From assembly GCA_944332695.1 (NCBI GenBank), contig CALVKL010000002.1, positions 1 through 49,294 of the forward strand: 49,294 bases of DNA, written 5' to 3'. The stretch comes from an uncultured Bacilli bacterium (lineage in GTDB: Bacteria; Bacillota_I; Bacilli_A; RF39; UBA660). Shown one piece after another: positions 3,888 to 40,376 of the stretch; position 1 is the first letter of the stretch; each line of letters opens with the position of its first letter. Made by a program: the position numbers and the translations under genes. The notes beneath the pieces are model-generated. The model was not told where the DNA came from and did no database searches. It saw nothing but the letters and a program-made list of their open reading frames with translations.

Positions 3888-4790
3888 TTAAATCACTAAT
3901 TTTTTTGTTAGTAATTTTGCTTGTTCTGTAAATTCACCTTGATTTATTTTTTGAATTTGTTCGCTTAAAACGGCTCGTGTGTAATAAACAGCTTCAACTA
4001 AATCTAAATCTTTATCCATAAATTCATATTTCTTTTTCATATTCTCCCATATTTGAAGATGTCGTTTGATGTATTCTTTATCTAAAAAACTTGTACTTAG
4101 TTGCTTTAAATCATCGCCATACATTAAAACCATCGCTTGAAAATAAAGCGAAAATTTATCTGCATCATAATTACTACCATGAAGTTCATATATGTCATAA
4201 AAATCTTTTACTCTTGTATTGGGAACGTCAAGTCTACGATTATGGGCAATTATATACAATTTTTCAGCAATATGTTCTTCAAAGGAAGGCGTAGTTATAA
4301 AAAACTTTTCGTCTCCTTTAAATAAAGGCATTACACATTTGAATTGTTTTTCGAATATTACTGAATTATTTTCTTTAAAATCAATGCTAATAGGAACTGT
4401 TACAAATCTTTCATCATCAGGATATTTTATTTTTGCGACTACTGGAATCTTATATACATTATTAGGTGTTTTGGAAGGTAATCTTGATAAATCGTATGTA
4501 ACAATTTCATCGCTTGCATCATATATAGAACGAAATAAAAGGATTAAAGGTTGATTGTGGTGTTCAGAAGAAGATAAATCAATATCTAAAACTGGTCTAC
4601 TAAGTCTTCCTAAATGAACATATTGACTAAAACTTCCCTTTACCACTAAAATACCCCGATTAATACCAGAAAGTTGTTTTAATAATCTTCGCGAATAATA
4701 AGTAATATATGCAGCATTAGTAGAAATTCCTAATCTTCTAGCTTCACCTTTTATAAAATTTTTGTTTTGATCTAAGTTTTTAAATTCCAT
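3888..4790 (-). CDS. AbiEii/AbiGii-family (DUF1814) nucleotidyltransferase toxin-like protein
   Basis: Pol-beta NTase signature VVKGS-x15-VLDIDL, IAEKLYIIAHNRR (K-L-x-A-x-x-x-R motif) and VKDFYDIYEL (D-x-x-D motif). The ~300 aa size is typical of the family. Confidence 0.7.
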   Translation of the reverse strand: MEFKNLDQNKNFIKGEARRLGISTNAAYITYYSRRLLKQLSGINRGILVVKGSFSQYVHLGRLSRPVLDIDLSSSEHHNQPLILLFRSIYDASDEIVTYDLSRLPSKTPNNVYKIPVVAKIKYPDDERFVTVPISIDFKENNSVIFEKQFKCVMPLFKGDEKFFITTPSFEEHIAEKLYIIAHNRRLDVPNTRVKDFYDIYELHGSNYDADKFSLYFQAMVLMYGDDLKQLSTSFLDKEYIKRHLQIWENMKKKYEFMDKDLDLVEAVYYTRAVLSEQIQKINQGEFTEQAKLLTKKLVI

Positions 4791-6912: not shown

Positions 6913-7884
6913 TTAATTTTCTCCTTCTTCTAACATTTTAGTAATTAAAATACCATAACCTTTATGCGGATTATCAACAACAACATGAGTAACTGCACCA
7001 ATTATGTATTCTCCTTGAATAATAGGCGATCCACTCATTCCCTGGACTATGCCATTGGTTTTTTCTAGCAATTTTTTATCTGTTATTTTAAATGAGATGT
7101 TTTTTGTTTCTTGCATAGGGCTAATATTGGTAACCTCTATCTCATATTTTTCTATTATATCATCATTTAAAACAGTTAGAATATAAGCTTTGCCTGTTTT
7201 TACTTGATTTGGTTTTGCTACTTTATATAATCTAGAATTGTCTATTTCATCAGTAAATGTTCCAAAAATACCTTTAATTGTATTCTCATATATTGTTCCT
7301 TGAGATCCTTCTAGATTAATTTTAGCATTTTTTTCTCCTGGTATACCATTAGCACTAGGTTCAATGTCAGTAACAGTTGATTCATATATACTACCACCAG
7401 AAATAACTAACATTTTACCAGTTTTACTGTCAGTAATTTCGTGACCTAAAGCACCAAATAATTTTGTGTTAGGATCAATATATGTTAAAGTACCAATTCC
7501 GGTAATACTATCTTTAACATAAATACCAGTTTTATAGTTATTATTAGTATCTTTTGAAAGTTTTAAATCAATTGATTTTATTACATTATCTCTTTTAAAT
7601 TCAATATTAATATAACCATTACTAGTTTTAATTTTATTAGTCAAATCATATATTGAATTAACTTTTTGATTATTAATTGCTGTTATCATGTCACCTATTT
7701 TTAAGCCGGCTTGACTAGCAATATATTGATTATCAACTTTATAAAAACCAACTACCATAACACCATCAGCTTTTAATTCAATACCAATATTTTCACCACC
7801 AACGATAACATAATCTGAATAGGCAAAAACAAAACCGGGAATAAATATAATAGTTAGAAGAATTGAAAGAAATGTTTTTTTCAT
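6913..7884 (-). CDS. spoIVB: SpoIVB peptidase (S55 sporulation signalling serine protease with PDZ domain)
   Basis: Signal/TM N-terminus, a PDZ-like segment (GLKIGDMITAINN), a catalytic His context GALGHEITD and a Ser context GMSGSPII. Confidence 0.88.
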   Translation of the reverse strand: MKKTFLSILLTIIFIPGFVFAYSDYVIVGGENIGIELKADGVMVVGFYKVDNQYIASQAGLKIGDMITAINNQKVNSIYDLTNKIKTSNGYINIEFKRDNVIKSIDLKLSKDTNNNYKTGIYVKDSITGIGTLTYIDPNTKLFGALGHEITDSKTGKMLVISGGSIYESTVTDIEPSANGIPGEKNAKINLEGSQGTIYENTIKGIFGTFTDEIDNSRLYKVAKPNQVKTGKAYILTVLNDDIIEKYEIEVTNISPMQETKNISFKITDKKLLEKTNGIVQGMSGSPIIQGEYIIGAVTHVVVDNPHKGYGILITKMLEEGEN

Positions 7885-7959
7885 TTAAAACATCTCCAAT
7901 CTATCACAGACTACATTATTATTATATCTTTTTTTAAAATTTTTAAATTTCTAATTTTT

Positions 7960-7987
7960 AACAAAAAAATCTAAATATTTTAGATTT
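7960..7987 (-). terminator. Intrinsic terminator after the oapA-like gene
   Basis: AAATCTAAA (7967-7975) pairs with TTTAGATTT (7979-7987), immediately after the stop at 7988-7990. A T-run follows on the minus strand. Confidence 0.55.
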
Positions 7988-8527
7988 TTATTTATAAAAG
8001 CAAGCTATTATTTTAGAAAAATTATAGACTATTTGAGTATTATTTTTAATTGCTATACTTTTACCAAGGGCTTTTCCACCAATTGTTAAAGATGCGATGA
8101 TACTTGTTATAAAAAGAGTAACAATAAAAGGGTTCCAATTAAATGTATTAATAATACTATTAGCAATTGTAATTCCAGCTGAACCAGATAAAATACCGCA
8201 AATATCACCGATTACATCATTACAAAAACTAGAAACGCGGTCAGCATTTTTAAGTAATTTTACCGCTGTTTTAGCACCTTTTACTTTTTTGGCACTTTTT
8301 GCATGAAATGGTTTTTCACTAGCAGAAGTAATTGCTACGCCAATCATATCAAATAATACACCAAGTAAGATGAATATAATAACAATTGTAATTCCAAAAA
8401 TAATATGAAGATTAGGAATTAACAATTCAGATATTCCTGATAAAAAAAATGATATTAAAAATGTAATTAATGTAACTTTTATAATCCAATTAACATTGTT
8501 TTTATTTTTCTTATTTTTTTTCGCCAT
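7988..8527 (-). CDS. oapA: OapA-like small polytopic membrane protein (OLE-associated protein A candidate)
   Basis: 179 aa with a Lys/Asn-rich N-terminus (MAKKNKKNKNN), about four TM helices and a basic loop (HAKSAKKVKGAKTAVKLLK). It sits immediately downstream and co-oriented with the large structured RNA. The call rests on context and architecture, not on remembered sequence identity. Confidence 0.6.
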   Translation of the reverse strand: MAKKNKKNKNNVNWIIKVTLITFLISFFLSGISELLIPNLHIIFGITIVIIFILLGVLFDMIGVAITSASEKPFHAKSAKKVKGAKTAVKLLKNADRVSSFCNDVIGDICGILSGSAGITIANSIINTFNWNPFIVTLFITSIIASLTIGGKALGKSIAIKNNTQIVYNFSKIIACFYK

Positions 8528-8576
8528 TTTATCACCACATAAATTTTATTATCAACAAAAAACTATAAATATTAAC

Positions 8577-9198
8577 TAAAAAATATATGTTTTTAGCATA
8601 TATCTTGGTTATGAAACGGACTTTAACATGGTTAACCTTGTGTCTTAGGTCAAGTAGGATTTCCCTTATTTCTACTATCCGTTACCAGTATAGCAGTTCC
8701 CTTTTAAAGAAATAAGTATATCGTCACCGAATATACGACTTGATTGCCACTTAGTACACACTATAATCCCATATTATAATGACATTCTAGGAGATTTCCT
8801 CAAACAAGTTATTCAATATTAATTCTTTTTTGCAAATGTAGTTTCAAATCACAATACTTAAATAATTTGGCCGAATTTTTTAAGTAGAACTAATTATCCC
8901 CTACACTCACTCAAGACAAGCTACACTACCCATAACTTTCGCCACCTGGTAGGTTTAATCCAAATTCGTAACAAGTCCAATCAACAATGCGTATATAGGC
9001 TTATTACAATATAAGGTCTCCACTAAATATTGGGTCATTTTCGTATGCCGTTACGGATGCCCAATATCTAATTCTTCCAGCATCCACCCCAAACTGGGCG
9101 TATGAAGCAGACACCAAAAGCTTCATCGATGTGCTCTTTAATGGTATTTTAACCCCATCCTCATAAAGAATTTCTTGACTAGAATAATGTGCCATTCA
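8577..9198 (-). ncRNA. ole: Large structured non-coding RNA, OLE (ornate, large, extremophilic) RNA candidate, about 620 nt
   Basis: ORF-free and G+C-enriched: 22/60 G+C in 9001-9060 and 28/60 in 9061-9120, versus 9/60 in 9541-9600 (hand counts). It has its own promoter (9206-9234) and a terminal hairpin plus T6 (8577-8603). Several GC-rich complementary segments are visible. The synteny xseA-xseB-[RNA]-[4-TM protein]...spoIVB matches the published OLE/oapA locus. Confidence 0.72.
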
Positions 9199-9205
9199 TA
9201 AGTAA

Positions 9206-9234
9206 ATGATAACATATTTAACAAAATTTGTCAA
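9206..9234 (-). promoter_or_regulatory. SigmaA-type promoter of the large ncRNA
   Basis: Minus strand: TTGACA (9229-9234), 17-bp spacer, TGT-TATCAT extended -10 (9206-9214). A second TTGACA lies at 9240-9245. Confidence 0.65.
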
Positions 9235-9290
9235 ATTTATGTCAAATACTATATGTTATATATATTTTTTACTAAAAAACCGATTATATA

Positions 9291-9322
9291 CAAAAAAGAC
9301 TTATTCTTCTACTTCTAAGTCT
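9291..9322 (-). terminator. Intrinsic terminator overlapping the end of xseB
   Basis: AGACTTA (9297-9303) pairs with TAAGTCT (9316-9322). A T6 run follows on the minus strand (plus-strand A-run 9292-9296). Confidence 0.55.
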
Positions 9323-9510
9323 TCTAATTGTCCATTTTCAGTAACAATTTTATTGATATTTTCTTCAATATTTTTAAGTTGTTCATCACATTCTTTAATA
9401 ATTTTCATAGCTTCGCTATATTTATTAATTGAATCTTCTAAATCGCTATTATCATTTTCTAAATTAGCTACAATACTTTCTAATTTTTTTATTTTTTCCT
9501 CAAATTTCAT
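9301..9510 (-). CDS. xseB: Exodeoxyribonuclease VII small subunit
   Basis: 69-aa coiled-coil protein ([14 protein letters not shown]....LE.S...Y..) overlapping the end of xseA. Confidence 0.88.
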   Translation of the reverse strand: MKFEEKIKKLESIVANLENDNSDLEDSINKYSEAMKIIKECDEQLKNIEENINKIVTENGQLEDLEVEE

Positions 9511-10837
9511 TGTTTATCTCCTTTACTTTAACTATTAAATATCCATCATTTAAACGAATATTTAAAATGTCATCTTTTTTTATTTTTTTAATACTTTTAA
9601 TAATCTTATTGTTTTGATAAGTTAAACTATATCCTCGTTTTAAAACCTTTAAAGGATTAATTAAATTTAATTGATCGATTAAATTGTTTAGTTTATTATG
9701 ACTATTTTCTAATTTTAATACAATAATTTTATTTAAGTTATCTTTAATTAAATTTATTTTTTCTTTATTTTTTTCATATAAAACTTTAGGATTAGACAAA
9801 ATATAAGAGTTTTTTAAATTATCTAAATATAGTTTATTTAGTTCAATTTTTTTAAGTACTAGTTCATTAATACGATTATTTAATAAATCTAATTTTTGTT
9901 TTTTATTTTCATAAATAATTAAAGGATTTTTTAAAACATATGAACTTTTTAAACTATCTAAGTATAATTTTTTAATATTTATTTGTTTTAATATACTTGA
10001 ACTTAATCTGATTTTCAATTGATTAAGATATTTATTTAAATCAACTAAATTAGGAACTGCCATTTCGGCTGCACCAGTTGGTGTGGGAGCACGTAAATCG
10101 GCAACAAAATCTGCAATGGTGAAATCAACCTCGTGCCCAACAGCGCTTATAATAGGTACTTTGGAATCGAAAATCGCTCGAGCTACTATTTCTTCATTAA
10201 AAGGCCATAAATCTTCGATTGAGCCTCCACCTCGACCAACAATTAAAACATCTAAATCAAAAGTATTGGCAAGTTTGATGTTTTTAACGATATCTTTACT
10301 TGCATTTTCACCTTGAACCAAGCTAGGAAATAAAATAACTTGTCCGATGGGATATCTTCTTTTTATTGTTGAAATAATATCTTTAATGGCAGCTCCTGTA
10401 TTCGCTGTAATAACACCGATTTTGTTAGGATATTTAGGTATTGGTTTTTTATATTTATTATCAAACAAACCTTCACTAGCCAATTGTTTTTTTAATTTTT
10501 CAAAAGCAATATATAAATTACCAACACCATCTTCTTGCATTTCTTCAACGTAGATTTGATAATTACCAGTTGCTTCATAAACACTTATTCGACCACTAAT
10601 CAATACCTTAGTTCCATCAGTAGGATTAAAGTTTATTTTTTTAGCGTTATTATTAAACATAATAGCATTAATTTTACTAGTTTCATCTTTGATTGAAAAG
10701 TATAAATGTCCTGTTGAATGAGCTTTAAAATTTGATATTTCACCTTTAATAAATACTTTTTGTAAATTAGTATCCAGATCGATTACATGTTTAATGTATC
10801 TATTTATAACACTAACAGTTAAATATTTATCATTCAT
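9500..10837 (-). CDS. xseA: Exodeoxyribonuclease VII large subunit
   Basis: N-terminal OB fold ([13 protein letters not shown]...[24 protein letters not shown]) and catalytic core ([15 protein letters not shown]...[15 protein letters not shown]). Confidence 0.93.
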
Positions 10838-29181: not shown

Positions 29182-30912
29182 TTATTTAATACTTATACCT
29201 AATTCTTTTAATTGACTTTCATCAACTAAATTAGGGCATTCACTCATTAAATCATTAGCGCTAGCTGTTTTAGGGAATGCTATAACATCTCGAATATTAT
29301 CAGTATCGGTTAATAACATAGTTAAACGATCTAATCCTAAAGCTAAACCACCATGTGGTGGAGTACCATATTTTAAAGCGTCAACAAAGAAACCAAATTT
29401 TTCGTTTATTTGTTCATCAGTTAATTCTAATGCTTCAAACATTTTCTTTTGAATTTCTTGATCATGAATTCTAATAGAACCACCACCAGCTTCATAACCA
29501 TTAATTATAATATCATAAGCTTTTGAATAACAATTAGCCTTATCTACTAATAATTTATCAATATCACTATCTTTAGGTGCAGTAAAGGGATGATGAGCGG
29601 CTACATATCGTTTTTCTTCTTCACTATATTCAAAAGATGGAAAATCAACTACCCATAATAATTCGTAATTACTACTAATTAAATTTAATTGTTTTCCTAA
29701 TTTTAATCTTAAAGCTCCTAAAGCTTGTTTAGTAATACTTTTCTTATCTGAAATAATTAAAACTAAATCATTATTTTCTAAATTTAATTTTGTTTTTAAA
29801 TTATCTAATTCTGATTGACTAATCACTTTAGCTATACTGCCAGTTATTTCAGTATCTATTTTCAAATAAGCTAAACCTTTAGCTTTATAATTTTTAACAA
29901 AATCTGTTAATTTATCTAAATCTTTTCTCGAAAAAATATTAGCACTATTTTTAACTACCAAACAATTAATAATACCATTATTATCAATAGTGTCTTTAAA
30001 AATGGTAAATTCAGTATTTTTAAAAATATCTGTTATGTCATTTATTTTCATATCAAATCTTAAATCGGGTTTATCAGAACCATATAAATTAATCGCATCA
30101 TCATATTTCATTCTTTTTAATGGTAATTTGATGTCAATATTCTTAATTTCTTTAAAAACATAGGCAATTAATCCTTCTGTTACATTTATCACATCATCTT
30201 CATCTACGAAACTCATTTCGATATCAACTTGTGTGAATTCTGGTTGTCGATCAGCTCTTAAATCCTCATCGCGGAAACATTTGGCAATTTGAAAGTATTT
30301 TTCCATTCCACCAATCATTAATAGTTGTTTAAATATTTGTGGTGATTGAGGTAAAGCATAAAATTTACCATTAAATATTCGTGAGGGCACCAAGTAATCG
30401 CGAGCACCTTCTGGCGTACTTTTACATAAGATAGGCGTTTCTATTTCCAAAAAACCCAAACAATTTAAATATTCTCTTATTGCAAAAGCAATTTTATGCC
30501 TTGTAATTAGTTTACTTTGTATTTCTTTTCTTCTTAAATCTAAATAACGATATTTAAGTCTTGTATCTTCTAAAGCATTTGTATCGGTTAGAGAAAAAGG
30601 AATTTCAATACTAGTATTTAATATTTTTAAATAGTCAATCATAACTTCAATTTCACCGGTTTCAATATTGAAATTTTTATTTTCTCTTTCTTTTATTTTC
30701 CCAATTACTTTAATAACATATTCGCTTTTTAAACTTTCAGCTAAATTATAATATTTATTGTCGGGATTAACAACTAATTGAATAATCCCACTACGATCTC
30801 TTAAATCAATAAAAATTAATCCACCTAAATTTCTTTTTTTGGCAACCCAACCATATAATGTTACAACTTCATTAATATTTTTAATATTAAAATCTGTATT
30901 GTTTTTTTTCAT
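29182..30912 (-). CDS. aspS: Aspartate--tRNA ligase
   Basis: Class IIb motifs: FIDLRDRSGIIQ (OB fold), QSPQIFKQLLM, FRDEDLRADRQPEFTQ, and GGLALGLDRL. 576 aa. Confidence 0.95.
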   Translation of the reverse strand: MKKNNTDFNIKNINEVVTLYGWVAKKRNLGGLIFIDLRDRSGIIQLVVNPDNKYYNLAESLKSEYVIKVIGKIKERENKNFNIETGEIEVMIDYLKILNTSIEIPFSLTDTNALEDTRLKYRYLDLRRKEIQSKLITRHKIAFAIREYLNCLGFLEIETPILCKSTPEGARDYLVPSRIFNGKFYALPQSPQIFKQLLMIGGMEKYFQIAKCFRDEDLRADRQPEFTQVDIEMSFVDEDDVINVTEGLIAYVFKEIKNIDIKLPLKRMKYDDAINLYGSDKPDLRFDMKINDITDIFKNTEFTIFKDTIDNNGIINCLVVKNSANIFSRKDLDKLTDFVKNYKAKGLAYLKIDTEITGSIAKVISQSELDNLKTKLNLENNDLVLIISDKKSITKQALGALRLKLGKQLNLISSNYELLWVVDFPSFEYSEEEKRYVAAHHPFTAPKDSDIDKLLVDKANCYSKAYDIIINGYEAGGGSIRIHDQEIQKKMFEALELTDEQINEKFGFFVDALKYGTPPHGGLALGLDRLTMLLTDTDNIRDVIAFPKTASANDLMSECPNLVDESQLKELGISIK

Positions 30913-30930: not shown

Positions 30931-31124
30931 AAAAAAATTCTATAAACATAAGGACGAATATATCGCGGTACCACCTTATTTCATAGAATCTATGCACTTT
31001 AATCGTTAACGTGATCACCCGTTTATTTAACGTTTACTGTCTTCTATATAACTATTAACTGATTTTCACCAACCATCAGCTCTCTAATTAAATCATTATA
31101 TGTACTCTTGCAAACAAATAATAT
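30931..31124 (-). promoter_or_regulatory. T-box leader (Asp specifier) controlling aspS
   Basis: The minus-strand RNA carries AGAGA (31081-31085) and a specifier loop GAAGACAG with a GAC codon (31039-31041). The T-box core AAGGTGGTACCGCG lies at 30964-30977. A long imperfect helix follows (30974-30989 pairing with 30937-30953), ending in T7 (30931-30937). Confidence 0.88.
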
Positions 31125-40237: not shown

Positions 40238-40370
40238 CTTGCACCTCCTTTTATCAATACCGTATAAAAAATGCTCTATACCAATAGAGCACTTAAAAAA
40301 ACTTTTTTCTAAGTCCTCGGTAGGAATTTAAGTCTACTAGACACCTACTGTCTACGGTACTTCACACAAC
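40238..40370 (-). promoter_or_regulatory. rplJ (L10) leader with an attenuator hairpin
   Basis: Structured 5' UTR between the promoter and the rplJ ATG. GC-rich paired segments (AGTAGG...CCTAC) are followed by TGCTCTAT (40272-40279) pairing with ATAGAGCA (40284-40291), then T6 on the minus strand. This layout is typical of Firmicute L10 leaders. Confidence 0.6.
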
Positions 40371-40376
40371 AAACTA

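Follow-up and report, generated by a model that had tools for sequence, protein, structure and literature searches.

What occupies the gap that follows xseB in the genome of an uncultured, very AT-rich Bacilli bacterium (lineage RF39; UBA660), where protein-only gene calling leaves a hole of 770 bp? The gap lies in a stretch of 49,294 nucleotides of contig CALVKL010000002.1, here called the window, and the original prediction, made from the sequence alone, was that it encodes an OLE-class RNA with oapA downstream. OLE is an ornate, large, extremophilic RNA that is membrane-bound and belongs to an already known family. We conclude with near certainty that the gap holds the ole gene, which encodes a full-length OLE RNA, and that the host is one of the uncultured, very AT-rich gut Bacilli. 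The RNA is a typical full-length member of the known family and is neither a new nor a minimal kind of element. The prediction of the pair was borne out by a full-length Rfam match, by covariation and by the OapA hallmarks of the downstream protein. The two genes are as follows.

8600..9211, minus strand: OLE RNA of the full-length type, recognised by Rfam RF01071, pair conservation, covariation in 43 homologues and conserved consensus positions.
7988..8527, minus strand: oapA, encoding a 179-aa polytopic, CNNM-like membrane protein with the motif D104-V-I-G-D108, recognised by PF01595, the DxxxD motif, the predicted fold and a ribosome-binding site (GGUGAU) upstream of the ATG.

Application of the Rfam OLE covariance model to the region had been set beforehand as a test by the original prediction. 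In an Rfam scan of the whole window, three matches exceeded the curated thresholds and OLE RNA was the highest of these. RF01071 matched 8600-9211 of the minus strand, untruncated and over model positions 1-616 of 616, with 387.5 bits (E 2e-110) against a curated gathering threshold of 50 bits. To place the RNA amongst its relatives, 80 loci were fetched from GTDB species representatives with the downstream protein (OapA) as the query; nhmmer found OLE homologues in 76 of them, and 43 OLE sequences, 38 from gut Bacilli and five from Clostridia, were aligned. The window keeps 205 of the 249 strongly conserved (upper-case) consensus positions of RF01071, and more than 140 columns are invariant across the alignment, window included. 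It is a trait of the OLE family that ~25% of positions are invariant, in joining regions and loops.

Could the region instead be a decayed protein gene, or a chance GC-rich spacer without an RNA product? A 63-aa open reading frame (ORF) at 9004-9195, the sole frame in 8528-9300, might be taken to favour this, but it has no Pfam match and lies inside the 612-nt full-length covariance-model match (E 2e-110), and the compensatory changes described below sit in base pairs and not in codon positions. The gap after xseB is thus free of any credible ORF, as had been claimed, and the decayed gene or spacer, already refuted by the Rfam match together with the covariation, has a practically negligible probability. 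The enrichment in G+C is real, with 35.1% for OLE against 25.9% for the window (standard deviation 4.0%, 612-nt windows), which ranks OLE seventh of 974; the six GC-richer 612-nt windows lie at ~32.1-32.8 kb and 35.2-35.9 kb, at rpoC and rpoB. The host fits the Bacillota, as its nearest relatives are gut-metagenome genomes mostly labelled Bacilli or Bacillota and the window contains spoIVB and spoIIM; known OLE hosts are Bacillota that are typically anaerobic or extremophilic. It had also been suggested that standard annotation would leave the region empty. Since OLE is detected by Rfam at its default threshold, this holds only for protein-only gene calling.

Does the RNA keep the OLE fold? 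When the Rfam consensus structure was projected onto the window, 139 of the 152 model pairs with both residues present were canonical. Across the 43 homologues, standard pairs were found in 88.2% of pair cells as compared with 39-44% when the 3' partners were slid by 1-3 columns, compensatory (both-side) changes occurred in 116 of the 152 pairs, and none of 500 column shuffles reached any of the observed covariation measures. The covariation amongst relatives that was looked for is therefore present. The helices and loops to which it applies are listed here from the 5' hairpins to the 3' domain, followed by the long-range helices.

9140..9159, minus strand: P4 hairpin with a conserved A-rich loop (UUAAAAUA); a model helix, with UAAA invariant in the 43 sequences.
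9074..9120, minus strand: P5/P5.1 hairpin with the loop ACGCCCAG (9101-9094); GCCCA is invariant in the 43-sequence alignment.
9024..9070, minus strand: P6/P6.1 with the loop AACGGCAU; GGCAU is invariant in the same alignment.
8960..9016, minus strand: P7 hairpin, full length; 12 of 17 pairs show double changes.
8926..8952, minus strand: P8 hairpin with a C-GAAA-G tetraloop cap, its tip GGCGAAAGUU at 8934-8943; model helix and covariation.
8823..8917, minus strand: P9 long arm with the palindrome GGCC (8869-8872) in the apical loop; model helices and covariation.
8621..8779, minus strand: 3' domain with P12 (P12.1 and P12.2), P13, P14/P14.1 and GGGAAAUCC after them; helices 90-100% paired.
8716..8736, minus strand: P13 with a bulged U and a GUGA tetraloop, the OapB site; model helix, site criteria from PMC7936274.
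8666..8715, minus strand: P14/P14.1 with a GUAA loop; model helix and covariation.
8616..9195, minus strand: terminal closing helix, AUGG 9195-9192 with CCGU 8619-8616; pair types across the 43 sequences.
8805..9177, minus strand: P3, CAAG 9177-9174 with CUUG 8808-8805, and P3.1, 9170-9163 with 8819-8812; 3-5 pair types per position in the 43 sequences.

Many of these elements correspond to contacts described in other OLE RNAs. The A-rich loop of P4 forms dimer contact 1 in cryo-electron microscopy models (PMC12265935). Just 5' of P5/P5.1, at 9133-9121, lies the conserved CACAUCGAUGAAG, which corresponds to the J4a/5 strand of the OapC k-turn (PMC9723947, PMC12265935). The GGC of the P6.1 loop is complementary to the GCC of the P5.1 loop, and the P5.1-P6.1 pairing is an intermolecular kissing loop of the OLE dimer (PMC12265935). 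In the dimer, the loop of P9 forms a symmetric kissing loop, and covariation has been reported for it (Kretsch et al. 2025, PMC12286853). Our alignment repeats this covariation, since every one of the 43 sequences carries a palindrome in the loop (GGCC, AGCU, GUAC, GGAUCC or GGGCCC). At the level of sequence, the dimer-contact loops of P4, P5.1, P6.1 and P9 are thus all kept. The OapB site of P13 consists of a GNRA loop and a single-nucleotide bulge (PMC7936274).

Three long-range helices that lie outside the Rfam annotation, namely the terminal helix, P3 and P3.1, also covary. In the terminal helix, two of the pairs are G-C in 43 and 36 of the 43 sequences, a third is U-A or U-G in 39, and the fourth is A-U, U-A, G-U or G-C in 39. 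This helix fixes both ends, 5' and 3', of the folded OLE RNA. P3 and P3.1 form the stem proposed to cross the membrane (PMC12265935). Of the complementary segments that had been picked out by eye, the GNRA hairpin GGCGAAAGUU proved to be the tip of a consensus helix, with three of three pairs in agreement. The other two, GGATGC with GCATCC (9055-60 and 9080-85) and ATGAAGC with GCTTCAT (9102-08 and 9120-26), are present as sequence, but none of their six and seven pairs, respectively, belongs to the conserved structure.

How, then, is the RNA likely to be transcribed? Two elements bracket it.

9206..9234, minus strand: sigma-70-type ole promoter, with -35 TTGACA 9234-9229, a 17-nt spacer, TGT 9214-9212 and -10 TATCAT 9211-9206; 11 of 12 positions match, with an extended -10.
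8578..8606, minus strand: weak terminator-like hairpin (AAGAUAUAUG ... CAUAUAUUUU) followed by U6, between ole and oapA; from folding and relatives.

The near-consensus promoter that had been proposed for the minus strand was the best-scoring site of the region in a promoter scan. It predicts a transcription start at ~9199-9197, a few nucleotides before the terminal helix, and the functional transcript would thus run from ~9199 to ~8580, a length of ~620 nt. In 53 of 57 related loci the 70 nt before the conserved GGCRCA box contain a promoter with 10 or more of 12 positions matched, 49 of them with the TG of an extended -10, whereas only 40 of 1620 control windows scored as high; in most related loci the promoter ends 11-19 nt before the box. 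In B. halodurans, too, OLE RNA is transcribed from an active promoter of its own, and this promoter increases expression by a factor of more than 100 (PMC3413148). A second perfect TTGACA is found at 9245-9240 (minus strand), 11 nt upstream of the -35, and lacks a good -10 at a spacing of 16-18 nt.

The 3' hairpin pairs 8606-8597 with 8589-8580 and is followed by a U-run at 8583-8578. As the original prediction held, it is a genuine hairpin with T6, having a folding energy of -7.6 kcal/mol (z = -4.0) that none of 200 shuffled sequences equalled. A homologous hairpin of slightly different sequence occurs in two related loci (L007 and L008), and a hairpin with a T-run follows OLE in 34 of 77 relatives as compared with 34 of 324 control windows. 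Possession of its own promoter and terminator, which had been thought unusual, is therefore no peculiarity of this locus. The hairpin proposed as an xseB terminator was rejected, since shuffled sequences fold just as well (z = +0.77).

A consensus terminator scan of 7800-9600 called no terminator, the 3' hairpin being passed over because its stem has only one G-C pair. Two candidate promoters for oapA were considered and neither was convincing: at 8555-8526 the -10 overlaps the start codon, and at 8575-8548 only 9 of 12 positions match. From the single G-C pair and the want of a convincing oapA promoter we infer that the terminator between ole and oapA is probably leaky and that far more RNA than oapA message would be produced. 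This would agree with the behaviour of B. halodurans, in which ethanol raises OLE RNA far more than it does oap mRNA (PMC3413148).

Is the downstream protein OapA? It had been described as a small polytopic protein with four transmembrane segments, and this was confirmed. It matches Pfam CNNM (PF01595) weakly, with 35.7 bits (cut-off 28.4), and D104-V-I-G-D108 lies in a block that is invariant across 31 and 81 homologues; the DxxxD motif is the published mark that separates OapA from true CNNM domains. An AlphaFold2 model (pLDDT 80) predicts long helices at residues 11-39, 42-68, 95-129 and 133-161. Comparison by sequence with the PDB gave no meaningful match (best E 0.38), and the fold was therefore compared instead. 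The best PDB folds were the archaeal CNNM MtCorB (7m1t/7m1u) and the CorC membrane domain (7cff), with probabilities of 0.99-1.00 and a TM-score of ~0.5, which repeats a published comparison. No model in an NCBIfam scan matches or names the protein, and RefSeq labels one homologue a 'CNNM domain-containing protein'. The CNNM-like sequence, the DxxxD motif, the CorB-like fold and the position right after OLE together identify the protein as OapA. With the CNNM/CorB/MpfA Mg2+ transporters it shares a weak but significant CNNM match and a predicted helical membrane fold, but it consists of the membrane domain only (179 aa), lacks CBS and CorC domains and carries the DxxxD motif.

In the window the genes run in the order nusB, xseA, xseB, OLE, oapA, spoIVB, spoIIM, mnmA. 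The oapA gene is on the same strand as OLE, ~70 nt beyond the end of the OLE model and ~50 nt past the hairpin and U-run. Of the 80 related loci, 76 have OLE upstream of oapA, and in 67 the two are directly adjacent. The Caloramator locus (L084) has the longer order nusB, a tsaD-like gene, folD, xseA, xseB, ispA, DUF212, OLE, oapA, dxs, tlyA, nadK, argR, recN, and the window locus is a reduced version of this ancestral nusB...recN cluster. The absence of folD, ispA and dxs had been held to be unusual; the genes are indeed absent, but in the gut-Bacilli clade this is normal, and neither ispA nor dxs was found beside OLE in any fetched gut-Bacilli locus. Amongst the fetched loci, xseB stands beside OLE only in the window and, with ispA between, in Clostridia. 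In the two closest loci, OLE and oapA lie amid glycosyltransferase and sulfatase genes. The genes directly upstream of OLE belong to 60 Pfam families in 65 loci and those after oapA to 61 Pfam families in 69 loci.

Several points weigh against a typical and functional OLE RNA at this site. P3.1 in the window has two U-U mismatches. A small hairpin (Rfam positions 424-435, alignment columns 509-520), expected at ~8780-8790 of the window, is missing. The stem of the 3' hairpin has its single G-C pair and failed the criteria of the terminator scan. No OapB- or OapC-like gene (KOW-like and YbxF/L7Ae, respectively) was found within the 49-kb window, whilst published data place OapB in ~60% and OapC in ~45% of OLE hosts. 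Finally, where the transcript ends, how abundant it is and whether it sits at the membrane are predictions for the host organism, and the last steps of the OLE mechanism are hypotheses taken from the literature.

Could the region be a decaying relic, that is, an OLE pseudogene freed from selection in a reduced genome? The very AT-rich host (25.9% GC), the loss of many genes of the ancestral cluster and the two mismatches in P3.1 are what such a relic might show. However, 91% of the model pairs are canonical and 82% of the strongly conserved positions are retained, OLE stands at 35% GC within a 26% GC genome, the promoter comes close to the consensus, and oapA is an intact gene that retains every invariant residue. 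Furthermore, the same OapA sequence occurs on six other metagenome contigs with identical gene order, and these six independent assemblies differ from the window by 0-1 substitutions over the 780 nt of promoter, OLE and terminator; only one change falls within a stem (8717 A>G, P13), where G-U replaces A-U and pairing is kept. A relic is accordingly very improbable and close to refuted already.

Is the RNA, if functional, a new, divergent or minimal OLE variant, a stripped-down RNA and locus working with fewer parts than the classical OLE, as the original prediction suggested? Its 387.5 bits fall below the 471-524 bits of three Clostridia, the 424-435 hairpin is deleted, folD, ispA and dxs are absent nearby, unlike in the Caloramator cluster, and neither oapB nor oapC is in the window. 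The score, however, lies inside the range of the clade (363-409 bits in four close relatives), and the 424-435 hairpin is missing in all 38 of the aligned gut-Bacilli sequences and present in all five Clostridia, so that its loss is a trait of the clade and not special to this locus. Besides the full-length OLE type, Fernando and Breaker (PMC11332333) recognise a variant 1, in which P7-P9 are short and the OapB site is often missing, and a variant 2 that has neither P7 nor P8. The model is matched from 1 to 616 in the window, with P7 (9016-8960), P8 (8952-8926) and P9 (8917-8823) at full length and the OapB site intact on P13. The window OLE is therefore neither variant 1 nor variant 2, although it shares with them an uncultured gut host known only from metagenomes and an OLE-oapA pair that stands alone without isoprenoid and folate neighbours. 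With all major stems and the protein-contact and dimer-contact motifs in place, a minimal or divergent variant is unlikely. Within its clade the window OLE is a typical member that is not minimal and shows no unusual divergence.

Amongst known RNAs, the closest are the full-length OLE RNAs studied in Halalkalibacterium halodurans and Clostridium acetobutylicum/botulinum. Shared with these are a length of ~600 nt, helices P2-P15 minus one small hairpin, the conserved single-stranded motifs, the GUGA loop and bulged U of P13, the k-turn strand, the loops of P4, P5.1, P6.1 and P9 (the last of them palindromic), a promoter of its own just before the first helix, and oapA directly downstream. The window OLE differs in having far less G+C (35%, with 26% for the host), in lacking the 424-435 hairpin, in a 13-nt insertion in the P7 loop relative to the Rfam model, and in a neighbourhood cut to nusB-xseA-xseB-OLE-oapA-spoIVB, without folD, ispA, DUF212, dxs, tlyA, nadK, argR and recN.

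How might such a locus work? By analogy with the OLE RNAs of H. halodurans and Clostridium, a promoter of its own would drive abundant synthesis of the ~620-nt RNA, and the P3/P3.1 stem would connect its two folded domains. Dimers may form through the A-rich loops of P4, the kissing of P5.1 with P6.1 and the palindrome in the P9 loop, and OapA, being CNNM/CorB-like, would hold the RNA at or in the membrane. The particle would then be expected to help the cell withstand excess Mg2+, cold, alcohols, poor carbon sources and similar stresses, most likely by way of control of OapA-linked divalent-cation handling. To this we would add that oapA may be expressed by read-through of the weak terminator, giving much more RNA than protein.

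OLE is amongst the largest bacterial non-coding RNAs of unsolved biochemical function, and each well-defined locus therefore adds comparative data; the window OLE adds little alone, being a typical full-length RNA within reach of Rfam at the default threshold. The by-products are modest. In the gut-Bacilli clade a conserved promoter, and often a terminator too, flanks the OLE-oapA pair. The occurrence of the pair in unrelated neighbourhoods weakens the argument for a functional tie of the isoprenoid, folate and DNA-repair neighbours to OLE and lends support to published work in which OapA is regarded as the only partner that OLE cannot do without. We tentatively propose, at somewhat less than even chances, that in AT-rich gut Bacilli OLE-oapA is a self-contained, relocatable two-gene unit with a strong promoter and a leaky terminator that gives a high ratio of RNA to OapA, minus one hairpin, and that the window keeps the ancestral site (nusB-xseA-xseB ... 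spoIVB) after the loss of folD, ispA, dxs, tlyA, nadK, argR and recN. If this is true, the clade would be a natural experiment showing that OLE can function independently of the gene cluster in which hints of its role have long been sought. A literature search on ispA, dxs and folD returned metabolic-engineering papers only.

The pair is sometimes uncoupled. Three loci (L012, L027 and L073) have oapA with at least 4.9 kb upstream and no OLE in the fetched locus by nhmmer or Rfam, and in nine others (L008, L011, L029, L040, L041, L052, L053, L063 and L081) OLE and oapA are separated by 0.4-3.2 kb. The spacer of L008 holds four ORFs, one for a glycosyltransferase, two of the EamA type and one without a Pfam match. 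A pattern scan for OLE on viral contigs gave one locus (L087), which is not OLE by Rfam. The plasmid search for OLE gave only a 504-kb replicon of Pusillibacter faecalis (pMM59_01; L088), deposited as a conjugative plasmid, which has the classical OLE-oapA-dxs context. It matches the 5' part of OLE at 200851-200968 (118 nt, 74.8% identity), with an OapA homologue, dxs, tlyA, nadK and argR downstream, so that genes of the core cluster are found on a secondary replicon.

Elsewhere in the window, an AbiEii-family nucleotidyltransferase toxin gene (3888-4790, minus strand) lies between mnmA and the RNase J gene and is also present in a related contig (L001). The AbiEii family belongs to type IV toxin-antitoxin or abortive infection systems, and no AbiEi-like ORF was seen adjoining 3888-4790. 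Two further RNA elements were found on the minus strand: a T-box leader at 30947-31121 (Rfam, 103 bits), just upstream of the aspartyl-tRNA synthetase gene (29182-30912), and an L10 leader at 40256-40375 (Rfam, 81 bits), upstream of rplJ-rplL. The L11 ORF (41390-41884, minus strand) is listed with 164 aa, and since its Pfam L11 domains start at residue 33, the true L11 start codon is probably further downstream.

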